Source: a virus (Duplodnaviria; Heunggongvirae; Uroviricota; Caudoviricetes). Taken from it: 11,259 bases of DNA. The number at the start of each line of letters is the position of its first letter. Position 1 is the first letter of the stretch. Shown here in pieces: positions 1 through 11,259 of this stretch. The translations under genes were made by a program, and so were the position numbers. The DNA lies in the IMG/VR virus record IMGVR_UViG_648276652_000017; one strand, given 5' to 3'. The notes under the pieces are model-generated. The model did not search any database. It was not told where the DNA came from and was given only the letters and a program-made list of their open reading frames with translations.

Positions 1-1862
1 TCACCATGATTAATATAGGTAAACTGCGCATTCGCCGTTCCACTTCCGCTGGATGTTGTCGGTGTGGTTATGCGGATCGTCATCGCTGACTTTATCCCCA
101 TCACCTCAATGACAGCGCCGGCGAGATGAATATTTCCGCAGCCCGTATCCGTGATGATTTTATTATTACCGTAAGACCAGGAGCCCTTGCACATCCAGTA
201 TGGGTGGTTAAATGCGCCCTGAGAATCCAGCCACCCGATAAACTGTGCGGTCGTCCAGTCTCCTGTCGTTGTGCTTACGGCCCCACCGAAGGCACGGCAG
301 GCACCAATATTTTTCGTAAAGGTGTCTTTGTCGGGGACATCCGCACCGTTCTTATCTTTCTGCAGTCGTTTCTCAGCATTCTCACAGGCGGCTTTTACGG
401 CCTTTGGTGTTGCCGCCAGTGACTCGGACGTGCTGTTGGTCGCACTGCTGAGCTGGACTATCCCCTTTTTCGTCGTGCTCGCATCCTCAAGCGCCACGGC
501 AGACGCAATATCCTCCGCCCGTTTTGCCGCAGTCTCAGCGCGCGTTGCCGCGGATTCTGCCGTGCTTTTGCTCTGTGCTGCCGCTGTCGCACTGCCAGCT
601 GCCTCTGTCGCCTTCGCGGATGCCGTCGTGGCACTGCCCTGCGCCTCTGACGCCAGCCTTGCCGCCTCATCTTTTGAAGCTGACGCCGATGATGCTGATG
701 ACGCCGCCGAACTGGCGGACGATACGGCTGCCGTTTTTGAGGATTCTGCGCTGGTTTCCGACGCTTTCGCGTTCGTCTCGGATGTCCTCGCAGCGGAAGC
801 AGACCTCGCTGCTGCAGTGGCCTGTTCAGTGGCTTCGCCAGCCTTCGTTGTGGCTGCTGAAGCGGACGATGCGGCGCTTTCTGCCGATTTTCCGGCGGCG
901 GTGGCACTGGCTGAGGCCTCCTCCGCTTTAACTGACGCCTCACGGGACGATGATGCAGCGGCAGTTTCTGAGCCTGCTGCTGCGGAGGCACTCTGTTCCG
1001 CTGCCGTTTCAGAAGACCTGGCGTTCGTCTCAGACGTCTTTGCCGCCTTCGCGGAATTTCCTGCCGCCGTTGCCGAGGAAGCTGCGCTACCGGCGCTCGA
1101 GGCTGCGCTCGTTTCTGATGATTTTGCAGCCTCTTTTGAGGCCGCCGCATCCCTGGCTGACGTGGCAGCTTCTGACGCTTTCGAGGTCGCGGTGGATGCA
1201 GACGTGGCGGCTGATTGTTGTGACGCTGCCGCATTCGTTTCTGACGTTTTCGCGGCACCGGCACTGGTGGCCGCCGCGCTTTTTGAGGACTCTGCAGCGG
1301 CAGCACTTTTTGATGCCTCAGCGGCCTTTGCTGAGGCTGTTTCTGCGCCGGAAGATGCTTCCTGTGCTGACGTCGCAGCCTGTCCGGCGGACGTGCTGGC
1401 GGCGCGTGCTGAGCCTGCAGCATCAGTCGCATGGGTTGCCGCCTCACGGGCAGATGTTCCGGCATCGCCGGCGGATTTTTTCGCGGCTGCCGTGTTCTGT
1501 GCCACTGCGGACGCGTTACGCGCCACCTCTTCCACCATCAGTTCAAAACGGCGCAGAGCCTCCGGACGGGCATCATCCTCCGTCATGGCACCGAGAAAAT
1601 CATTCAGCGTACCGGGTCGGGAATCTTCATACACGGTGATGGTGCCGGCATGTGACGGCGGAAAACCGTCAACCAGCAGGATGACACCGTACTGGCCGTA
1701 CTCAACGTCCATACTGTAACGCCCGGCTTCATCCGGATTTTCTGAGGCCACCGTGTTCACCACCACCGTGGTACTGTTACGTTTTGCTTTCAGCTGAATG
1801 GTGCAGTTCTGTACCGGTTTACCTGCACCGTCTTTCAGCACGCCTGAAATCTTTACTGCCAT
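1..1862 (-). CDS. stf: Side tail fiber protein (lambda Stf/orf-401 family), 3'-partial; gene continues beyond window start
   Basis: Minus-strand ATG at 1862..1860. Hand translation begins MAVKISGVLKDGAGKPVQNCTIQLKAKRNSTTVVVNTVASE, the N-terminus I recall for lambda Stf. Centre is Ala/Ser/Thr-rich with KTSETNA-like repeats (e.g. SSETAAEQSASAAAGSETA around 960..1020). I checked by hand that this frame has no stop from 1862 down to position 3 (no TTA/CTA/TCA in plus frame 3). The plus ORFs 271..1719, 524..931, 950..1639 and minus ORF 458..1465 are out-of-frame shadows of this gene. Confidence 0.85.
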   Translation of the reverse strand, partial: MAVKISGVLKDGAGKPVQNCTIQLKAKRNSTTVVVNTVASENPDEAGRYSMDVEYGQYGVILLVDGFPPSHAGTITVYEDSRPGTLNDFLGAMTEDDARPEALRRFELMVEEVARNASAVAQNTAAAKKSAGDAGTSAREAATHATDAAGSARAASTSAGQAATSAQEASSGAETASAKAAEASKSAAAAESSKSAAATSAGAAKTSETNAAASQQSAATSASTATSKASEAATSARDAAASKEAAKSSETSAASSAGSAASSATAAGNSAKAAKTSETNARSSETAAEQSASAAAGSETAAASSSREASVKAEEASASATAAGKSAESAASSASAATTKAGEATEQATAAARSASAARTSETNAKASETSAESSKTAAVSSASSAASSASSASASKDEAARLASEAQGSATTASAKATEAAGSATAAAQSKSTAESAATRAETAAKRAEDIASAVALEDASTTKKGIVQLSSATNSTSESLAATPKAVKAACENAEKRLQKDKNGADVPDKDTFTKNIGACRAFGGAVSTTTGDWTTAQFIGWLDSQGAFNHPYWMCKGSWSYGNNKIITDTGCGNIHLAGAVIEVMGIKSAMTIRITTPTTSSGSGTANAQFTYINHG

Positions 1863-1873
1863 ATTCGTTCCAC

Positions 1874-1901
1874 AAATAAAAAAGGTGCCATTTCTGGCAC
1901 C
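1874..1901 (-). terminator. Putative intrinsic terminator between J and stf (7-bp GC-rich stem, 4-nt loop, T-tract on the minus strand)
   Basis: Plus 1884..1901 is ggtgcca-tttc-tggcacc. On the minus-strand transcript the hairpin GGUGCCA-GAAA-UGGCACC is followed directly by UUUUUUAUUU (complement of plus 1874..1883). It lies 3' of the J stop (1921..1923) and about 13 nt upstream of the stf ATG. Confidence 0.6.
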
Positions 1902-1920
1902 CGGTCTGGTTTCTGAACAT

Positions 1921-4900
1921 TCAGCTGATACTGATACCAGCTGTGGATTTCTTCATCACGACAACAAGAAGGTCACTGATACTGCTCGTTGGCGTCCAGT
2001 TATTAGCGCCATATGAAGAGACATTGAAAGTCAGGGTGACATGCCCGTGTCCTGCAGGCATATCAATGACTGATGAAAATACCCGACTGACATCCGTCGC
2101 AGGTTGGTGAAAGATTTCCTGTCCGTTCTTCAGTACCTGCAGCTTACAGGTTGAATACCAGTATGACTGTTGGTTGTTGCTGTTGAAGTTTTCATGCTTA
2201 CCACCGCGAAACAGAACGGGTGGAATCACTATCTGACGGTCAAAAGCCTGATCATCATACACAGTGACCGTTATCGTACCGCTGGCATAACTGCTGTTTC
2301 TCGGAAAGGCTTTTCCCACCGTTTTGACAATATCGCCTTCAATCTGGCTGGCAGACAGTTTTCCCAGAATCCGGCAGTTCTGGTTAATCGTGACGTTGTT
2401 GAGTGTTCCGGAGTTCGCATTTACATTACCGCTGATATCGGCATTTTTCGCCGTCAGCCGCCCGTCCGGCGTCAGGGAAAAGGCCGGAGGATTGCCGCCG
2501 CTGGTAATGGTGGGGGCCGTCAGGCGCTTCAGGAACACGTCGTTCATGAATATCTGATCGCCCTGACCAACAAACATCGGTTTTGTGTTGCCATTCGCAG
2601 GATTAACCATCGCAATCCTGTCCGCCGCCAGCAGCACCTGACTCTGCATGCCGTCAGGGGTGTTCTCAATACCGGCACCAATACCCGCGATATAAAGGCG
2701 TCCGTCCTGCATCTGCTGCAGCTTCACAGCCCACATGCTGTTCAGATTATTATTTGTATCAACCTGAACCTTCTGTATCTGCTGAATTGCCGCACTCTGG
2801 TCTTCCAGTTTCTTATTGACGGTCTGTGTGATTTCATTGCTGACATCCGTAATGGACGTCCTGATTTCAGCCAGATCAGGCGCCAGCTGACCGTTATCAA
2901 TCTGCGTCCACAGCTCCTGAGCCAGATGGGTTTTTCCTATCTCGCCTTTGAAAAAATCCAGATAGCCGGATGCATCATCACTCGGCTGACCAACAGCCTC
3001 CACGAATGCCGATTTGCCAACGGTGTTCACACTGCGGATATAAAAGTAATAATCATGGCCCGGCCTGATATTGATACTGGCGGCTATCCAGTACAGCGCC
3101 GTGCCAAGATAGCGTGCTGTGGTTTCAACCTGCCTGATATCCGCAATCCGCTTTTCCGAGAACCAGAACTCAAACTGTACCGTCGGATCATAAACCGCAA
3201 GATGCGGCGTGGCGGTTATCTGAAAATAGCCCGGCGTCAGCTCAATCCGCGACGGCGCTGCCGGTGCGGCAATCCGGAACGATACCGACGCCGGATCGCC
3301 CTGCTGCCCCCACGCATTTACTGCCCGGACTGTCAGCCTGTAGTTCCCCAGAGCCAGTTGTGTGAAGCGGTAAGTGGTTTCCGTCGTCCGGGCCGTGCTG
3401 ACCAGCCGCTCACTGCCGTCATCCGCTGCCACGGTCAGGCGAAGCATGAAACTCACGCCCTTCACCACCTTCGGCGTGTCCCAGCGGGCCAGTACCTGAT
3501 ACTCCCCGCTGTCTGCGGTGACTTCGGCAGTCAGGTGCTGCACTGCTGGCGGCGTGACACCATTCACCGTGCCGCTCTGGTCGCCGTCAAAGTGCGCCCC
3601 GTTATCCACGATAGCTTCTTTTTCCGGTACATGCTGCACGGCAGTGATGGCATACGTGCCGTCGTCGTTCTCACGGATACTCACGCAGCGGAACAGGCGC
3701 TGGCGCAGCGTCGGCAGCTTCAGCCCCCATACGCTGTATCCGGCAACGCCGTCAGGAACACGGCTCACTTTCACCTTCACGCCGTCGGTGACGGACTGAA
3801 CCTCCACGCTGACCGGATTACCACTTCCGTCAACCAGGCTTATCAGCGTGGTACCGGAGGATGGCAGCGTGATTTCACGGTCGAGCGTCAGCGTCCGGGT
3901 CTGGCTGTTTACCGCCAGCACGCGTCCGCCGGTGCGGATACCGGCATAGTCATCATCGCAGATTTCAATGACATCGCCCGGTACATGGCGAAGCCCTTCG
4001 GCACCCACGCTGAAGTCCACGGTCTGCGTTTCCAGCAGTTCTGTTTTAATCAGCCACAGCCCGGCGCGGTGTGCCTGCCCCCGGCTGGTACAGCCAAAAG
4101 CATCCATCTTCGTGACGTTACGACCGTAACGGGCAATGGCCTGCGTGTCCTCCACAAGCTCTGTCGCCGTCTCCCAGCCGTTATTCGGGTCAATCCAGTT
4201 CACCTCAACGGCATTATGGCGGTCCTTCAGGGCGCTGAAGCTGTAGCGGAACGGCGCGCCATCATCCGGCATCACCACATTACTGCGGTTATAGGTCCAC
4301 ACCTTATCCGACGGTCGGTCCTGCACGAACGTCAGCGTCTGCCCGTTCCATACCGGCATACAGCGCATCGCCGAGCAGAAATCACTGAGCACATCCCACG
4401 CCTTGCGCTGTGTGGTCAGGTACGCATTACAGGTGATGCGCGGCTCCGTGCCGCCAAAGCCGTCCGGCACTGACTGGTCGCAGTACTGGCCGATGACATA
4501 CAGCGCCCATTTGTCCACATCCGCCGCACCAAGACGTTTCCCCATGCCGTAGCGTGGATGGGTCAGCATATCCCACAGACACCAGGCCATGTTATTGCTG
4601 TATGCTGGCTTAAACGTTCCGTCCCAGATACCGCTGTATTGCCGAGTCTGCGGGTTATAGTTCGACGGCACCTGCAGAATACGCCCGCGCAGATGATAAT
4701 TACGGCTCACCTGCTGGCTGCCGAACTGCTCCGAATCCACCTGTACGCCGACCAGTGCCGTGTTCGGGTAGCACTGTTTCACATCGATGATTTCGGTGTA
4801 TGACGACCAGAGCGTTTTGTTCTGCAGCTGGTCTGTGGTGCTGTCCGGCGTCATCCTGCGCATCCGGATATTGAACGGGCGCGGCGGCAGGTTACCCACC

Positions 4901-5403
4901 ACCACCGATGCCAGATACTGCGAGGTGGTTTTGCCTTTAATGGTGATGTCTTTTTCCGTCACCCAGCCACCATTACGCTGTATCTGAACCAGCAGGCGGA
5001 CTTCCGACGGATTCCGGTCCCCCTTTGAGGTGGTTTCCACCAGTGCCTGCACACCGAAGGTAAAGCGCAGACGGTCGATGTTTGCCGACGTGATGGTCCT
5101 GGTAATCGGCGTGTCGTACTTCACTTCCGTACCCAGCACCGTCTCGGAGCCGGAGGATTCAAATCCCTCCGGCGGTGTCTGCTCCTGCTCACCGGCCCGG
5201 AACACCACCGTGACGCCGGATATATTGGTATTCCCCTCACTGTCCAGCACCGGCGTACTGTTCAGCAGCACGCTTTTTAATCCGTCCACCGGACCTTCAA
5301 CCGGCCCTTCGCTGATGGCATCGATCACACTCAGCAGCTGCGTGGACTTCAGGTTGTCCTTCGCTTCGCGCGGGGTATGCCCCTTACTGCTGCCTTTACC
5401 CAT
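1921..5403 (-). CDS. J: Tail tip attachment / host specificity protein J (central tail fiber), 1160 aa
   Basis: ORF track translation starts [54 protein letters not shown] and is collinear over most of its length with lambda J as I recall it (lambda J is 1132 aa). ATG at 5403..5401 and TGA at 1923..1921 confirmed from sequence. The C-terminal roughly 250 residues appear divergent from lambda J. Confidence 0.95.
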
Positions 5404-5425
5404 TCGTCATGCTCCATAAACGATA

Positions 5426-5445
5426 AAACCGCCCGGAGGCGGTTT
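5426..5445 (-). other. Perfect 8-bp stem / 4-nt loop hairpin in the I-J intergenic spacer
   Basis: Plus 5426..5433 aaaccgcc pairs with 5438..5445 ggcggttt, loop cgga. On the minus transcript it is followed by UAUCGUUUAUGGAGC and then the J ATG, with GGAG about 9 nt upstream of the start. Confidence 0.5.
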
Positions 5446-5463
5446 CACATAAAACATTTTGCA

Positions 5464-6105
5464 TCAGCGACCAATCACCACAACCTGACCACCATCCCCT
5501 TCGTCTGCCGTGCTGATCTCCTGAGAAACCACGCGTGACCCCACGCGCATTTCACCGTACAGAACCGGCAGAACATTGCCCTGGGCAACCATGTTATCCA
5601 GTGAAGAAAAATAGGTATTCTGTTTGCCGTTATCCGTTGTCTGTGTGCGGGGGGTTTTGGGTTTAGGGGCCAGCATCTGTGCAACACCGCCAAGCGTCAT
5701 ACTGGCACCGAGAGAAAACAGCAGATTACTCGCCATAATTCCTACCCCCGGCATCCATATAGCAACCGCCATAACAGCCGCCCCCAGCACAGCCTGAAAC
5801 ACACCGCCACTTTTGGCTCCTGCCAGACGCGGCACGATATGGATCACGGCACCATTTTCCAGCGGCTCATTAAGACGGGCAGACAATTCGGTTTCACCTG
5901 CATCACGCCCGGCAATGCGTACCTGGTACCAGCCGTCGCTCAGTTTCTGACGAAATGCCGGGATCTGCATGGCCAGCGCCCGGATGGCTTCGGACCCCGT
6001 TTTCACTCGAAGGTCGATGCGGCGGCCAAATCGTTGTAAATCCCCGTAAAGGCAGATGCGTGCCATGCCCGGTGACGCCAGAGGGAGTGTGTGCGTCGCT
6101 GCCAT
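5464..6105 (-). CDS. I: Tail tip assembly protein I (ubiquitin-like N-terminal domain family), 213 aa
   Basis: Translation MAATHTLPLASPGMARICLYGDLQRFGRRIDLRVKTG ... NGKQNTYFSSLDNMVAQGNVLPVLYGEMRVGSRVVSQEISTADEGDGGQVVVIGR matches lambda gpI as I recall it. Position is between K and J as in lambda. ATG at 6105..6103 confirmed. The start overlaps the 3' end of K by 103 nt in another frame, so the true start could be a downstream Met. Confidence 0.9.
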   Translation of the reverse strand: MAATHTLPLASPGMARICLYGDLQRFGRRIDLRVKTGSEAIRALAMQIPAFRQKLSDGWYQVRIAGRDAGETELSARLNEPLENGAVIHIVPRLAGAKSGGVFQAVLGAAVMAVAIWMPGVGIMASNLLFSLGASMTLGGVAQMLAPKPKTPRTQTTDNGKQNTYFSSLDNMVAQGNVLPVLYGEMRVGSRVVSQEISTADEGDGGQVVVIGR

Positions 6106-6746
6106 TTGTCGGTGTACCTCTCTCGTTTGCTCAGTTGTTCAGGAATATGGTGCAGCAGCTCGCTGTCACCACAGTAAATGGCGGCATGATTCGGCACCGA
6201 TGAACCAAAACAGCACAGCAGCACATCGCCCGGCTGCGCCGCTGACAACGGCACCTGATACAGCCCTGTGGCCTCCAGATTATCCAGATAGAGATTCTGA
6301 CCGTTACGCCACCAGTCATCCCCGCGATGAAAATCCGGCATCTCAATTCCCGCCAGATGGTAAGCGTCCCGGAACAGCGTGTAACAGTCCGTTACCCCGT
6401 GCTCAAAGCGCCGCCCGGTGAGATGCGGCACACAGCGGAATTTATGAATCGCCCCCCGGCAGACCAGCCACCACGGCAAATCACTCTGTACCTGCAGCCG
6501 CCGGTCGGCCTCACTCAGCCAGGGCAGACCACCGGGGTGGCTGTGGACCAGCGCCACAATCTCTCTCTGCATTTCTGCACTCAGCCAGTCCTCCGGCGAC
6601 ATCCGGAAATACTCCTCCGGCTCACCGGAGATATTCACGCAGGGAAAATATCTTTCCTCCTCCGGCGTTCTCACCACGAAGCCGCACGACTCCGCTGGCG
6701 CACATCGCCGGGCGTGCGCCAGAATCGCTGATTCTGTCTCTGTCAT
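6003..6746 (-). CDS. K: Tail tip assembly protein K (JAB/MPN metalloprotease-like plus NlpC/P60 peptidase-like domains), 247 aa
   Basis: Translation MTETESAILAHARRCAPAESCGFVV... contains a JAMM-like motif HSHPGGLPWLSEAD (HxH-x7-S-xx-D) and NlpC/P60-like Cys/His context (GVTDCYTLF, VPNHAAIYCGD). ATG at 6746..6744 lies 3 nt downstream of the L stop. Length is longer than the 199 aa I recall for lambda K, so the 3' end should be checked against references. Confidence 0.9.
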   Translation of the reverse strand: MTETESAILAHARRCAPAESCGFVVRTPEEERYFPCVNISGEPEEYFRMSPEDWLSAEMQREIVALVHSHPGGLPWLSEADRRLQVQSDLPWWLVCRGAIHKFRCVPHLTGRRFEHGVTDCYTLFRDAYHLAGIEMPDFHRGDDWWRNGQNLYLDNLEATGLYQVPLSAAQPGDVLLCCFGSSVPNHAAIYCGDSELLHHIPEQLSKRERYTDKWQRRTHSLWRHRAWHASAFTGIYNDLAAASTFE

Positions 6747-6751
6747 GGGAT

Positions 6752-7450
6752 TTACTGCGAAAGTTTGTTAATGGAAAGGAAGCTGCCAAAGTTGCCGACA
6801 TTATTGCGAAACTTACAGCCACTCAGGCATTTGCTGCATTTATCCTTCGTGATATCGGACGTCGGCTGGTCATATTCATCCGCGACCGCCGGACCGCTAT
6901 AACCGCACTCATCGCCGCGATAGGTCCAGGTGCAGGTGTTGGCCAGCATGATACGTCCCGGAAAAACAGCGCCATCCGTTTCAGTCGGCGTGGACAGTAC
7001 AAAAGAGGCACTGACCGCGCTCAGTTCGCTGCACTGCTCGATGCGCCAGCGGCTGATCACCTCCTGCTCCGGATCGGCTTCGCTGTTTCCGTTGACGAAG
7101 TTCACCGCATCCAGAAAGCGGGCGTAAACCTTACGCCGGACCACCGTTCCGCCGACCAGACTCTGCAGATCTTCCGCCATCCCGGTGATCATGCCGTGCA
7201 GGTTAGAGACCGTCAGTGTCGGACGGGCAGCACTGCCCTTGCCGTTCATCTCAAATCCACTCCCCTGAATGGGATAGGCCTGATACTGCCGACTCTGCCA
7301 GGTGACAGACTCACCTTTTTCGTTCTGCTCATTACAGAAAAAGTAGCGATCCCCGCCTACCTCGGTCAGGTCGATTTCCCAGAGCACCACGCTGGCCGAC
7401 TGCTCCGCACGAATGCATTCATTCAGCGTTTCCTGTTGTATGTCCTGCAT
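6752..7450 (-). CDS. L: Minor tail protein L, 232 aa
   Basis: Translation MQDIQQETLNECIRAEQSASVVLWEIDLTEVGG ... CSKCLSGCKFRNNVGNFGSFLSINKLSQ is near-identical to lambda gpL as I recall it, with the same length (232 aa). ATG at 7450..7448, TAA at 6754..6752. Confidence 0.95.
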   Translation of the reverse strand: MQDIQQETLNECIRAEQSASVVLWEIDLTEVGGDRYFFCNEQNEKGESVTWQSRQYQAYPIQGSGFEMNGKGSAARPTLTVSNLHGMITGMAEDLQSLVGGTVVRRKVYARFLDAVNFVNGNSEADPEQEVISRWRIEQCSELSAVSASFVLSTPTETDGAVFPGRIMLANTCTWTYRGDECGYSGPAVADEYDQPTSDITKDKCSKCLSGCKFRNNVGNFGSFLSINKLSQ

Positions 7451-7454
7451 CAGA

Positions 7455-7787
7455 TCACCACTTCGTCAAACTGACACGAAAAATCGGTATAGGTGATATG
7501 TTCTGTCGCTGACCACGTTCGACACACCACTCTGATTTTTCTGTTAATACCCGGCGGGCGCCAAAAAAAGATTTATAGCCTTCATGCCGGGCTAAAAATT
7601 TTTCAAATGAATCACGTTCATTCGCCTCAACTTTGAAATCACAGGTGAAAACGCGCAGAGAATGATTAAGTCCATTTGGACTTCGTTGCTCATAACCATC
7701 GCCAAATCTTACAGTTTTTATCGATGGTTTATTTTCTGTTTTCATTCCATCCTCTGGTAACCAGTGAAATTCTTCCGTATTAGCCAC
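7455..7787 (-). CDS. M: Minor tail protein M (lambda gpM family, divergent), 110 aa
   Basis: Translation contains FHWLPEDGM...[12 protein letters not shown], resembling lambda gpM (FRWKVKPGM...KVRFGDGYSQR). The start codon at 7787..7785 is GTG, not ATG, and overlaps the H stop (minus strand GTGGCTAA, with TAA at 7782..7780). Similarity to lambda M extends upstream of the internal ATG at 7745, which favours the GTG start. The gene lies in A+T-rich DNA, unlike L. Confidence 0.8.
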
Positions 7788-10700
7788 TTAACATTCCCCC
7801 ATCACGTCGCATATTTAACAGATTGCCCTGCACCCGCTGATCAACCATCCCCATAAGTGCTTTTATTGCCTGAGGGCCAATCTCTCCATTCTGGCCGTCA
7901 TTTTGAATAGTGATTTGGTATACAGGGGCATAGGTAATATCTCCGCCTCCATTACCACTTTTACTATTAATAGCTCTGACACCAAGAGAACCATCGGAAG
8001 TTCGTGTTAATGGCATAATGGCTTCCGGTCCAGCCTCACCAAAAACACCAGCCCCTTTTGCAAAAGCAAAAAATTGCGGGGAATCATAAATACCGTTCGA
8101 ATACGTGCTCAATGACGGAGACTCATAAACACCGCCCTTTGCATTCGGAATAAATTTACTAATAGCACTCCCGATAGTTCCTAAAATCCCCCCAGAAGAA
8201 CTGTTACTAATGCTGTCGAAAATCCCAGTAATTGAAGCCTTTAATGCTATTCGACTAAGATCCGAAATCACGGAAGTAGCGAAAGAACGAAAATTTGCCT
8301 TGCCTGTCGTGACAAAATCACCCAGCGCATCGGTCATCCCATCAAACATCTGAGTCGTGGTTGATTTTATCTGCTCACTGATATCCTTAGTGTCATCCAG
8401 CCAGTTATTGAATCCCTGGGAGGCACCACTAACCCAGTCTCCTGCCTGAATATCGAGCTGCTCGTTTTTCTGTCTGACAATTTCTTTTTCCCGTTCCAGA
8501 GCATCATTCAGAGCCTGCATTTTCTCTTGAAAAACATGATCTGACATTCCACGGGATTTATCTGCATAGTCACGTTCAAGTTGCAGACGCTGATTGTTAT
8601 ATCCATGTTCAATCCGCAGTAATTCCTGCTGGCGTTGCTGATTTTTATCGCCAACCCCATAACCAGCAATCTGAATATCATACCCCTGCTGACGATTATC
8701 AATCGAAGCCTGCAATGAATCACGCCATGCTGTTATTTCGGCGGATTCCTTGATTAGCCTGTTATTTTTTTCAATCGCAACATTTTTCTCCATCAACGTG
8801 GTTATTTCTTCCCGGTGTAAGAGAAGCGATTTCTGATCCTGGGTTAATTTCGATGATGGTCGTGACTCTAGGTCGGCAATCCGCTGACGCCACTTAACCA
8901 GTTCCTGTTCAGAGGAACTTAATTTAACGGTCAACTCAGCTTGTGAACTTAGTAACGCATTCTGTTGATTCAGATGATCAATCATTCGTTGGGCTGCATC
9001 ATCAGAATAATCTTTCGCCTTTGGTTGCTTTGGATCTTTATAACGCTCATTTATTTGAGCGATAAGATTATTATATTCTTCCTTTGAATACTGATTCTTT
9101 AGCTTTTCCAGTTTTGCAAGTTCACTAGCTCTCTGCTGCTCCCGGGTCTGATATTGTTTTGAAAAGGCATCTGCTCTCTGTCTGAGTTCAATTCCTTCCT
9201 GTTGTCGCTTGTTGTAATCGTTTATTGATGAATTTAGTACGTCCTGAGCAATTTTTTCTGCTTGAAGTACGCCCAATTGCTGCTTTAATCGTGCCAGCCT
9301 TTTATTTTGAGCTCCGCCATCTCCAATGCCACCTAACCCGAAAACTCCGGATCGGGTATTTTTTTCTATTTCATCAATTTGACGGAGAACATCTGAGATT
9401 TTTTGATCAAGGGAGGCCTCACGGCCAATATCCAGCATGGAATCCCATGCCCATTTTGCGGAGTCTGCGACAGCTTTCCATGCAGTCTCAAGATAACCAA
9501 GATTTTCTTTAATCTGGTTGGTGCGCTGGATCATTGAGGATGAGTATTCTTCTGTCGCAATGCGGGCGGCCTCCTGCTGGTTCCCTTCATCCTGTAGCGC
9601 CTTAATCTGGTTATAAGTCGCAAGTGTCAGAAAATGGTACTGATCATTAAGTTTTGATATGGCACTGACAGGATCCTTTGCAATTTCATTGAAGTCATTA
9701 ACCAGTTGTTCGGTTGATATTCCTGTTACTTCGCTCGTTTTTACTATCGCTGTCGTCACTTGCTCCAGCGAACTGCTCGCTACCTTTCCCGAACGCACAA
9801 GCTGATTTAATACTGCCGCCGCAGCACCAGTTGTCGAATCAGCCGCATTCCCGGCACGTTGAGCTAAATCGCCCAATTGCCCGCTGGTTGTCCCCAACTG
9901 ATTTCCGGTAAGAATAAGAGATTTATTAAATTCGTCCTGCTCCTGAGAGCCTTTATAGTAAGCCAGTCCTAAGACCCCAACGGCTGCTGCGGCCAGGGTA
10001 AAAGGATTAATTAATCCCAGCACATAAGAACCTACCCCTTTGATCGCCGGGCCAATCCCACCGAACATATCTTTTAGCTGGCCGCCCTGCTGCATTAACA
10101 CCATAAATGGCGACTGACCAGTGGACAACCCAACAACAATATCCGTCATTTGTGCAGGCAACATGCGCATAGCAAAAGCCGTTTGTTTTGCCGACATTCC
10201 GGTTTTGCTTAATTGTGATTGAGTAACCTCAAGCTCACTCCGCATAGCACGAAGTTTTCCAGAAAGCTCCTCATACATTTCAGGAGAAAGCATCCCCTTA
10301 GCTTTTGCTTCATTGAGCTGTTTCTGTTGTTCTACCAGACGATTAAAAGCAGTTCCGACAGGATCAAGTTGAGCAATCAGACGTTGCAAAGCAACAACCT
10401 GTTCATCATGCGCTTTTGCTGCTTCTCGCTCTGCCTGAGCCTCTCCGGTAAGCTCTCGCCGTGTTTCCTGTATTTTTCGGCTATAATTCTCAAACTGAGA
10501 ACCATTTATTTTCCCGGATGCAAACGCAGCATTAAGTTCATCATGCTGTTGTTCAAGATTTCTTAGCGCCGCAGCCAGAGGGTCGATCTTGTCCAGCATT
10601 CTTTGAAAGGCCTGAGCCTGCGCTTCCTGCTGGGCGGCAGCAAGTTTTCCGGCCTTCTCGGCTTCTCTCTGCGCTTGCGCAACCCCGCTCAATTCCTCTG

Positions 10701-10923
10701 TGGTTTCATTAAGTTTACGGACAAGAAATTCATATTCTTCTTTATCAATAAGCCCTTTATCGAAAAATTTCTTTAATTCAGAATAGCGTCGACCGACAGT
10801 ATCAATTGCGGCACCAACTGGATCAATAGCTGCTTTTAATTTTGCGAGCGCGTTCTTCTCATCTTCTGTTGCCTTAGTCACTTTCCCTGCGCTATTTGCA
10901 GCAGTTTCCCCAGCCTGCGTCAT
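7780..10923 (-). CDS. H: Tail length tape measure protein (lambda gpH family), at least 1047 aa; 5' end probably displaced by the IS2 insertion
   Basis: Contains [41 protein letters not shown] (compare lambda [41 protein letters not shown]) and the C-terminal [16 protein letters not shown]...RRDGGMLSG block (compare lambda ...NNDGTNGQIGPAALKAV...MRDGGLFSG). Long coiled-coil-like, Q/E/K-rich centre. The reading frame stays open upstream of the ATG at 10923 up to and into the IS2 end, with no in-frame ATG/GTG/TTG and no Shine-Dalgarno before 10923. Confidence 0.9.
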
Positions 10924-11004
10924 TTTGACTAATGAGGAGGTCAGATTGTCAGCATTATTTTTCGCTCCAGTGCTATCAATAATTATTGCGAGACGCGAGG
11001 TTTG

Positions 11005-11045
11005 TAGACTGGCCCCCTGAATCTCCAGACAACCAATATCACTTA
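11005..11045 (+). repeat. IS2 left terminal inverted repeat region (approximate extent)
   Basis: Terminal sequence TAGACTGGCCCCCTGAATCTCCAGACAACCAATATCACTTA matches the IS2 end as I recall it. It contains an internal 8-bp inverted repeat ATCACTTA-tt-TAAGTGAT at 11038..11055. Confidence 0.7.
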
Positions 11046-11095
11046 TTTAAGTGATAGTCTTAATACTAGTTTTTAGACTAGTCATTGGAGAGCAG

Positions 11096-11259
11096 ATGAT
11101 TGATGTCTTAGGACCGGAGAAACGCAGACGGCGTACTACACAGGAAAAGATCGCTATTGTTCAGCAGAGTTTTGAACCGGGAATGACAGTCTCCCTTGTT
11201 GCCCGGCAACACGGTGTGGCAGCCAGCCAGTTATTTCTCTGGCGCAAGCAATACCAGGG
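11096..11259 (+). CDS. insC: IS2 transposase OrfA (InsC), 5'-partial (first 54 codons in window)
   Basis: ATG at 11096 preceded by GGAG 7 nt upstream. Translation matches the IS2 InsC N-terminus, including the helix-turn-helix region ([22 protein letters not shown]). Runs off the window end. Confidence 0.9.

Follow-up and report, generated by a model that had tools for sequence, protein, structure and literature searches.

A long open reading frame on the minus strand of the window (the whole stretch of DNA analysed here, 11,259 nucleotides) encodes most of a phage tape measure protein, and its first ATG lies at 10923, leaving 81 nt (10924–11004) between that codon and the end of an IS2 element. 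This arrangement raises the question of where the gene truly begins, and whether IS2 has separated it from its start, as an earlier note had claimed from the sequence. The window is the entire contig ADWU01000070.1 (11,259 bp) in reverse orientation, from assembly GCA_000179155.1; accession ADWU00000000 belongs to E. coli MS 119-7 (HM339), which was isolated from the colon/rectum of a patient with Crohn's disease (PMC8741296). The assembly is a 2010 draft, and the contig breaks off 255 nt into IS2. From comparison with uninterrupted homologues and with other copies of the element, an IS2 copy is very probably inserted in the tape measure gene, at codon 4 or 5, in a Rac-type lambdoid prophage of MS 119-7. 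The features on which the argument depends are as follows.

11005–11259, plus strand: left end of an IS2 isoform, truncated where the contig stops; boundary as the curated start of IS2A in K-12
11005–11046, plus strand: 42-bp IRL of IS2 (IRL length from PMC3299598)
Up to 11259, plus strand: IS2 leader, then orfA/insC from its ATG at 11096 for 164 nt
11000–11004: GTTTG (CAAAC on the gene strand), nt 10–14 of the tape measure CDS; predicted target duplication copy beside IRL
10924–11004, minus strand: tape measure codons 4–30, now without start codon or RBS
7780–10923, minus strand: rest of the tape measure gene, Met31 to stop (1047 aa), a gpH homologue of the Rac ynaA/tmpR type (Pfam, BLASTP)
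7450–7787, minus strand: gene M homologue, next in order after the tape measure gene, with a 1-nt homopolymer deletion

The boundary of the element was placed by alignment with K-12 MG1655, in which similarity starts exactly at the first base of the curated mobile element IS2A, corresponding to 11005 of the window. In window letters the IS2 left end, TAGACTGGCCCCC, begins at this position; the terminus TAGACTGGCCCCCTG is found there, and the letters from 11005 read TAGACTGGCCCCCTGAATCTCC. Four other IS2 copies with unrelated flanks have the identical first base. Some IS2 BLAST matches ran 7–27 nt further left, and a boundary to the left of 11005 was considered and rejected, because the flanks of the independent copies differ (…CTTTG, …GGTTC, …ATTTG and …CATTC) and are only loosely alike; the leftward extension reflects loosely similar target sites and not another boundary. 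The terminal inverted repeat, starting TAGACTGG, is present, as is InsC (orfA) approximately 90 nt inside IRL, incomplete because the contig stops within it; this terminal gene call matches Pfam HTH_Tnp_1 (helix-turn-helix), and its ATG at 11096 lies at the same offset as the start codon of K-12 insC1. Terminal sequence, boundary and orfA offset are all shared with K-12 IS2A, and over the 255 nt present, which are the left end only, the window element is an isoform 94.5% identical to it (241/255). The closest sister copy, a complete 1331-bp element in strain EC96 with a frameshifted transposase, matches at 254/255 positions. The terminus that the earlier note had put at about 11005, 81 nt above the first ATG, is thus fixed at exactly that base by the IS2A alignment, and insC lies on the plus strand, divergent from the tail genes, as it had also described.

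Below this terminus, the tape measure frame was found to be open across all 81 nt and for a further 14 codons of IS2, as far as a TAA at 11049–11047, whereas the other two minus-strand frames contain 3 and 4 stops, respectively, within 10924–11004. No ATG, GTG or TTG occurs in frame among these 41 open codons, which offer just ATA, ATT and CTG, and neither GGAG nor AGGA is present in the 25 nt before 10923 (CAATCTGACCTCCTCATTAGTCAAA). On recheck, all of the sequence-level statements of the earlier note (terminus, continuation of the frame into IS2, stops in the other two frames, missing start codons and missing Shine–Dalgarno) were therefore correct. An open stretch of 27 codons is, by itself, not improbable by chance, and the open frame becomes meaningful because of the comparison with uninterrupted genes.

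Ten phage records at least 99% identical to window positions 10300–11004 were recovered, each matching over the full length and wholly inside an annotated tape measure gene. Uninterrupted homologues, including ynaA of the K-12 Rac prophage, are 99.3–100% identical to the window up to 11004, and local BLAST gave 99.3–99.97% from 11004 downward with nothing matching above it; beyond that point they continue ...GAGCAAAC back to an ATG with AGGAG 8 nt upstream. The uninterrupted start reads ATG GCA GAG CAA ACC TCG and the product has 1077 aa; the best match, ON032529, has a CDS of 3234 nt (1077 aa) that begins caGGAGttttaataaATGGCAGAGCAAACCTCGCGT. On its minus strand the window reads IS2-...GGCCAGTCTA and then CAAACCTCGCGT, and homology to the uninterrupted genes ends at GTTTG (11000–11004), stopping at nt 10 of the CDS. 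Because homology ends at CDS nt 10–14, the RBS, the ATG and the first 3–4 codons should lie beyond IS2. The start is the same across sources: in the phage records, in the full-length gene of strain TUM9868 (PGAP) and in the K-12 Rac remnant ynaA, it lies 90 nt upstream of the Met equivalent to 10923, PGAP having chosen the identical ATG for the latter two. Klebsiella and Erwinia phage homologues, with 37–70% identity over the first 70 residues aligned, are likewise annotated as starting at the residue that aligns with M1, and GGAG or a similar motif lies 7–9 nt upstream in each. These distant homologues share M-x-E-x-x-S-R-L-A-I-x-x-D-S-x-G-A-x-x-x-A-D, and residues 1–22 are the best-conserved stretch among the 70. 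Taken together, the homologue starts and the conservation identify the 81 nt as tape measure codons 4–30. The claim that IS2 separates the gene from its start is accordingly supported by uninterrupted homologues that begin 90 nt further upstream. The window contains neither the start nor a Shine–Dalgarno, so that a complete frame with its own start and RBS is absent, and the tape measure gene is present there in disrupted form.

The remainder of the gene was characterized by Pfam and BLASTP. Pfam matches to TMP_2 (1.8e-80), TMP_4 and Tape_meas_lam_C were obtained, and BLASTP of the protein against lambda H gave E = 5e-76 over residues 270–1077, with 28% identity. Genes M, L, K, I and J follow downstream in the window, and the ydaY chaperone lies upstream in the uninterrupted homologues; the lambda gene order (chaperone with a −1 frameshift, tape measure, M, L, K, I, J) is therefore shared. 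The Rac-type protein is about 220 residues longer than lambda gpH, on its N-terminal side. A resemblance of the N terminus to that of lambda H, as previously suggested, held only in part: the two proteins share an initial MAE and 5 identical residues over 22 positions, but the likeness is weak, and BLASTP leaves that part unaligned. K-12 Rac ynaA/tmpR is far closer, its 5′ region being 99.9% identical to the window gene, with the same annotated start and with ydaY upstream; ynaA keeps its start but has lost its 3′ two-thirds by deletion, whereas the window gene has a complete body and a start split off by IS2. Relative to uninterrupted alleles the gene body is 99.3–99.97% identical, with no indel and 4–6 amino acid differences. 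As the body is otherwise undamaged, the insertion is probably a recent event.

Sister IS2 copies are 1331 bp long and are flanked by 5-bp duplications (CTTTG, CATTC and ATTTG, 3 copies), and GTTTG at 11000–11004 is predicted to be one copy of a 5-bp target duplication, the second of which would lie beyond the contig. The AGGAG RBS and the ATG, together with codons specifying M-A-E(-Q), would now be ~1.33 kb away, past the right end of IS2. On this prediction the far side would read IS2 right end, GTTTG, CTCTGCCAT..., and the far junction would carry ...ATGGCAGAGCAAAC adjoining the IS2 right end; on the plus strand of the window, the junction is expected as ...GGGGCAAATCCA, GTTTG, CTCTGCCATTTATTAAAACTCCTGAC, so that, past the right end, the duplicated GTTTG is predicted to be followed by ATGGCAGAG in reverse complement and by the AGGAG motif. 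A ribosome starting at the original ATG would enter IS2 and produce MAEQT followed by about 57 IS2-derived residues, ending after about 60. Gapped-pattern scans of genome and metagenome contig collections for the far junction (IS2 right end, 0–20 nt, gene start region) returned 0 matches, the left junction pattern likewise gave 0 matches in the genome contig collection, and none of three variants of the predicted 61–63-aa fusion peptide (MAEQTGFAPIF...) was on record by exact look-up. It may also be that sequence beyond IS2 has been deleted or rearranged. The 5-bp sites beside IRL in four independent IS2 copies are CTTTG, ATTTG, CATTC and GTTTG, and may hint at a target preference for NTTTG.

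If the protein instead truly started at Met31 (10923), the 81 nt would be untranslated or part of another gene, and IS2 would lie upstream of an intact gene. One record appeared to fit: an uninterrupted and otherwise identical prophage in a Logan contig from SRR25183528 carries a 1047-aa call from precisely that Met. In that contig the true start ATG is mutated to ATA (about 9912–9915), which accounts for the shorter call, and the record was rejected as support for a Met31 start. Every other annotation begins 90 nt upstream behind AGGAG, no Shine–Dalgarno precedes 10923, and Met31 is not conserved, being V or I in two distant homologues, in contrast to the well-conserved residues 1–22. Two outcomes that the earlier note had named as telling against its own reading, namely a homologue starting at the Met of 10923 and the 81 nt belonging to a different gene or to intergenic DNA, were both looked for: the phage records, TUM9868 and ynaA ruled out the former, and the assignment of the 81 nt to codons 4–30 ruled out the latter. 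The alignments already refute a Met31 start, to which we attach almost no weight. Hardly more credible is an artefact of assembly that joined tail-gene reads to one of many IS2 copies in a chimeric contig end. The contig does end in a repeat, and it carries a suspicious homopolymer indel elsewhere, so that its sequence quality is imperfect. The break, however, coincides exactly with the terminal base of IS2, as true transposition gives, whereas a random chimera could fall at any position. Moreover, short-read assemblies usually break inside insertion sequences, and real insertions yield contigs that end a few hundred bases into the element, just as this one does.

In this reading of an insertion in codon 4 or 5, IRL abuts the gene body, with the transposase genes pointing away from the tail genes; codons 4–1077 remain, having no canonical in-frame start before Met31 and no Shine–Dalgarno there. 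As the remnant has neither, it would appear that full-length tape measure protein cannot be made. Long non-contractile tails cannot be built without a tape measure protein, and loss of this one should abolish tail assembly; for this reason the prophage most likely makes no infectious particles unless IS2 excises precisely, and, judged from the sequence, the Rac-type prophage of MS 119-7 is probably unable to form them. An insertion that is real but leaves the gene working, with a protein lacking residues 1–30 or initiated at a non-canonical codon still supporting tail assembly, is improbable, if a little less so than an artefact. Its transcription would have to come by read-through or from IS2: late-operon transcription from the far side could conceivably read through the element, the downstream genes own their starts, and the frame open for 14 codons into IS2 contains ATT, ATA and CTG, so that some weak translation from one of these or from Met31 may persist. 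Against this, the junction offers no Shine–Dalgarno, no canonical start and no promoter-like site, and the motif best conserved within the first 70 residues lies in the missing stretch, so that the remnant is without it. IS2 has 41/42-bp ends, with a weak inward promoter in IRL (PMC3299598), and the outward −35 by which IS3-family elements such as IS2 activate their neighbours sits in IRR (PMC9330008); here, IRL faces the gene and IRR faces away from the gene body. A promoter and terminator scan of 10500–11259 on both strands found none, although the scan was crude and also missed the known weak IS2 IRL promoter.

Several further observations were made on the neighbouring genes. The gene M homologue has A7 at 7563–7569 where four homologues have A8, and the resulting frameshift replaces the 37 residues at the C terminus, a part conserved in lambda M; either this is a further inactivating lesion, or the 2010 draft has a sequencing error in the homopolymer. 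Upstream, in the uninterrupted homologue locus L001, ydaY has an in-register A_AAA_AAG slippery site (2506–2512) two codons before its stop, with the −1 frame open to 2826, which predicts a 252-aa G-T-like tail assembly chaperone fusion (2069–2826); its distal −1-frame part is annotated in records as a separate 61-aa hypothetical protein. A terminator-like GC hairpin with a T-run lies directly upstream of the tape measure RBS (L001 2944–2975), inside the late operon and just before the tape measure gene, and is kept in E. coli, Klebsiella and Erwinia phage homologues (L001 and L006–L009) despite sequence divergence. In the distal direction, the window ceases to match ON032529 at about 7311, within gene L, and the J protein has 1160 aa in the window versus 1132 aa in ON032529, from which the distal tail-tip and fibre genes (1–7310) appear to be a different mosaic module; a fibre gene runs off the contig at window position 1. 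ON032529.1 itself, deposited as the 'complete phage genome' of 'Salmonella phage SPF_0923', carries trkG, sitABCD, ompN and a pyruvate-flavodoxin oxidoreductase gene; in a 705-nt comparison it showed 100% identity with Rac-type DNA of E. coli, and the record seems to be a predicted prophage region together with some host chromosome.

The wider distribution of the locus was examined among complete E. coli genomes using an 801-nt query made up of 432 nt of upstream sequence and 369 nt of the gene counted from its ATG. The Rac prophage family locus is present in 1077 of 5426 genomes and is uninterrupted across the query in 1059 of the 5426. Junction BLAST found the MS 119-7 IS2 junction in none of these 5426 genomes. 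The sole match, TUM9868 (NZ_CP128923.1), was rejected as a second case of the junction, as it carries a different insertion: an independent 1331-bp IS2-like element at 4472–5802 of the extracted locus, with a 5-bp duplication CATTC. As in the window, the element is IS2-like, in the same orientation and close to the tape measure start, but it lies at a different site, 308 nt upstream of the tape measure ATG in the −1-frame extension of ydaY, so that it hits the chaperone frameshift extension and leaves the tape measure gene whole. An IS5-type element beside the lom remnant in K-12 Rac is likewise a case of an IS-disrupted prophage gene. Three independent lesions by the tape measure start have thus been found: IS2 in codons 4–5 in MS 119-7, the IS2-like element in TUM9868 and the ATG-to-ATA change in SRR25183528. 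That the stretch from ydaY to the tape measure start is a recurrent lesion target in Rac-type prophages is a speculative and unlikely proposal; if true, the recurrence could reflect selection for tail loss (domestication) or a target preference of IS2 near the conserved hairpin and NTTTG-like sites.

For annotation, the 1047-aa 'tape measure protein' call represents what is left of a 1077-aa gene that IS2 has split, and the gene should be annotated as disrupted; truncated gene calls at contig ends beside IS elements are not to be trusted as real starts. The type of event is already known, being an unremarkable knockout by IS2 of one of a prophage's structural genes, and a jump of an insertion sequence into a structural gene is an ordinary route to prophage disablement. 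For the Rac-type prophages, MS 119-7 would add one more case of insertion sequences disabling resident prophages.
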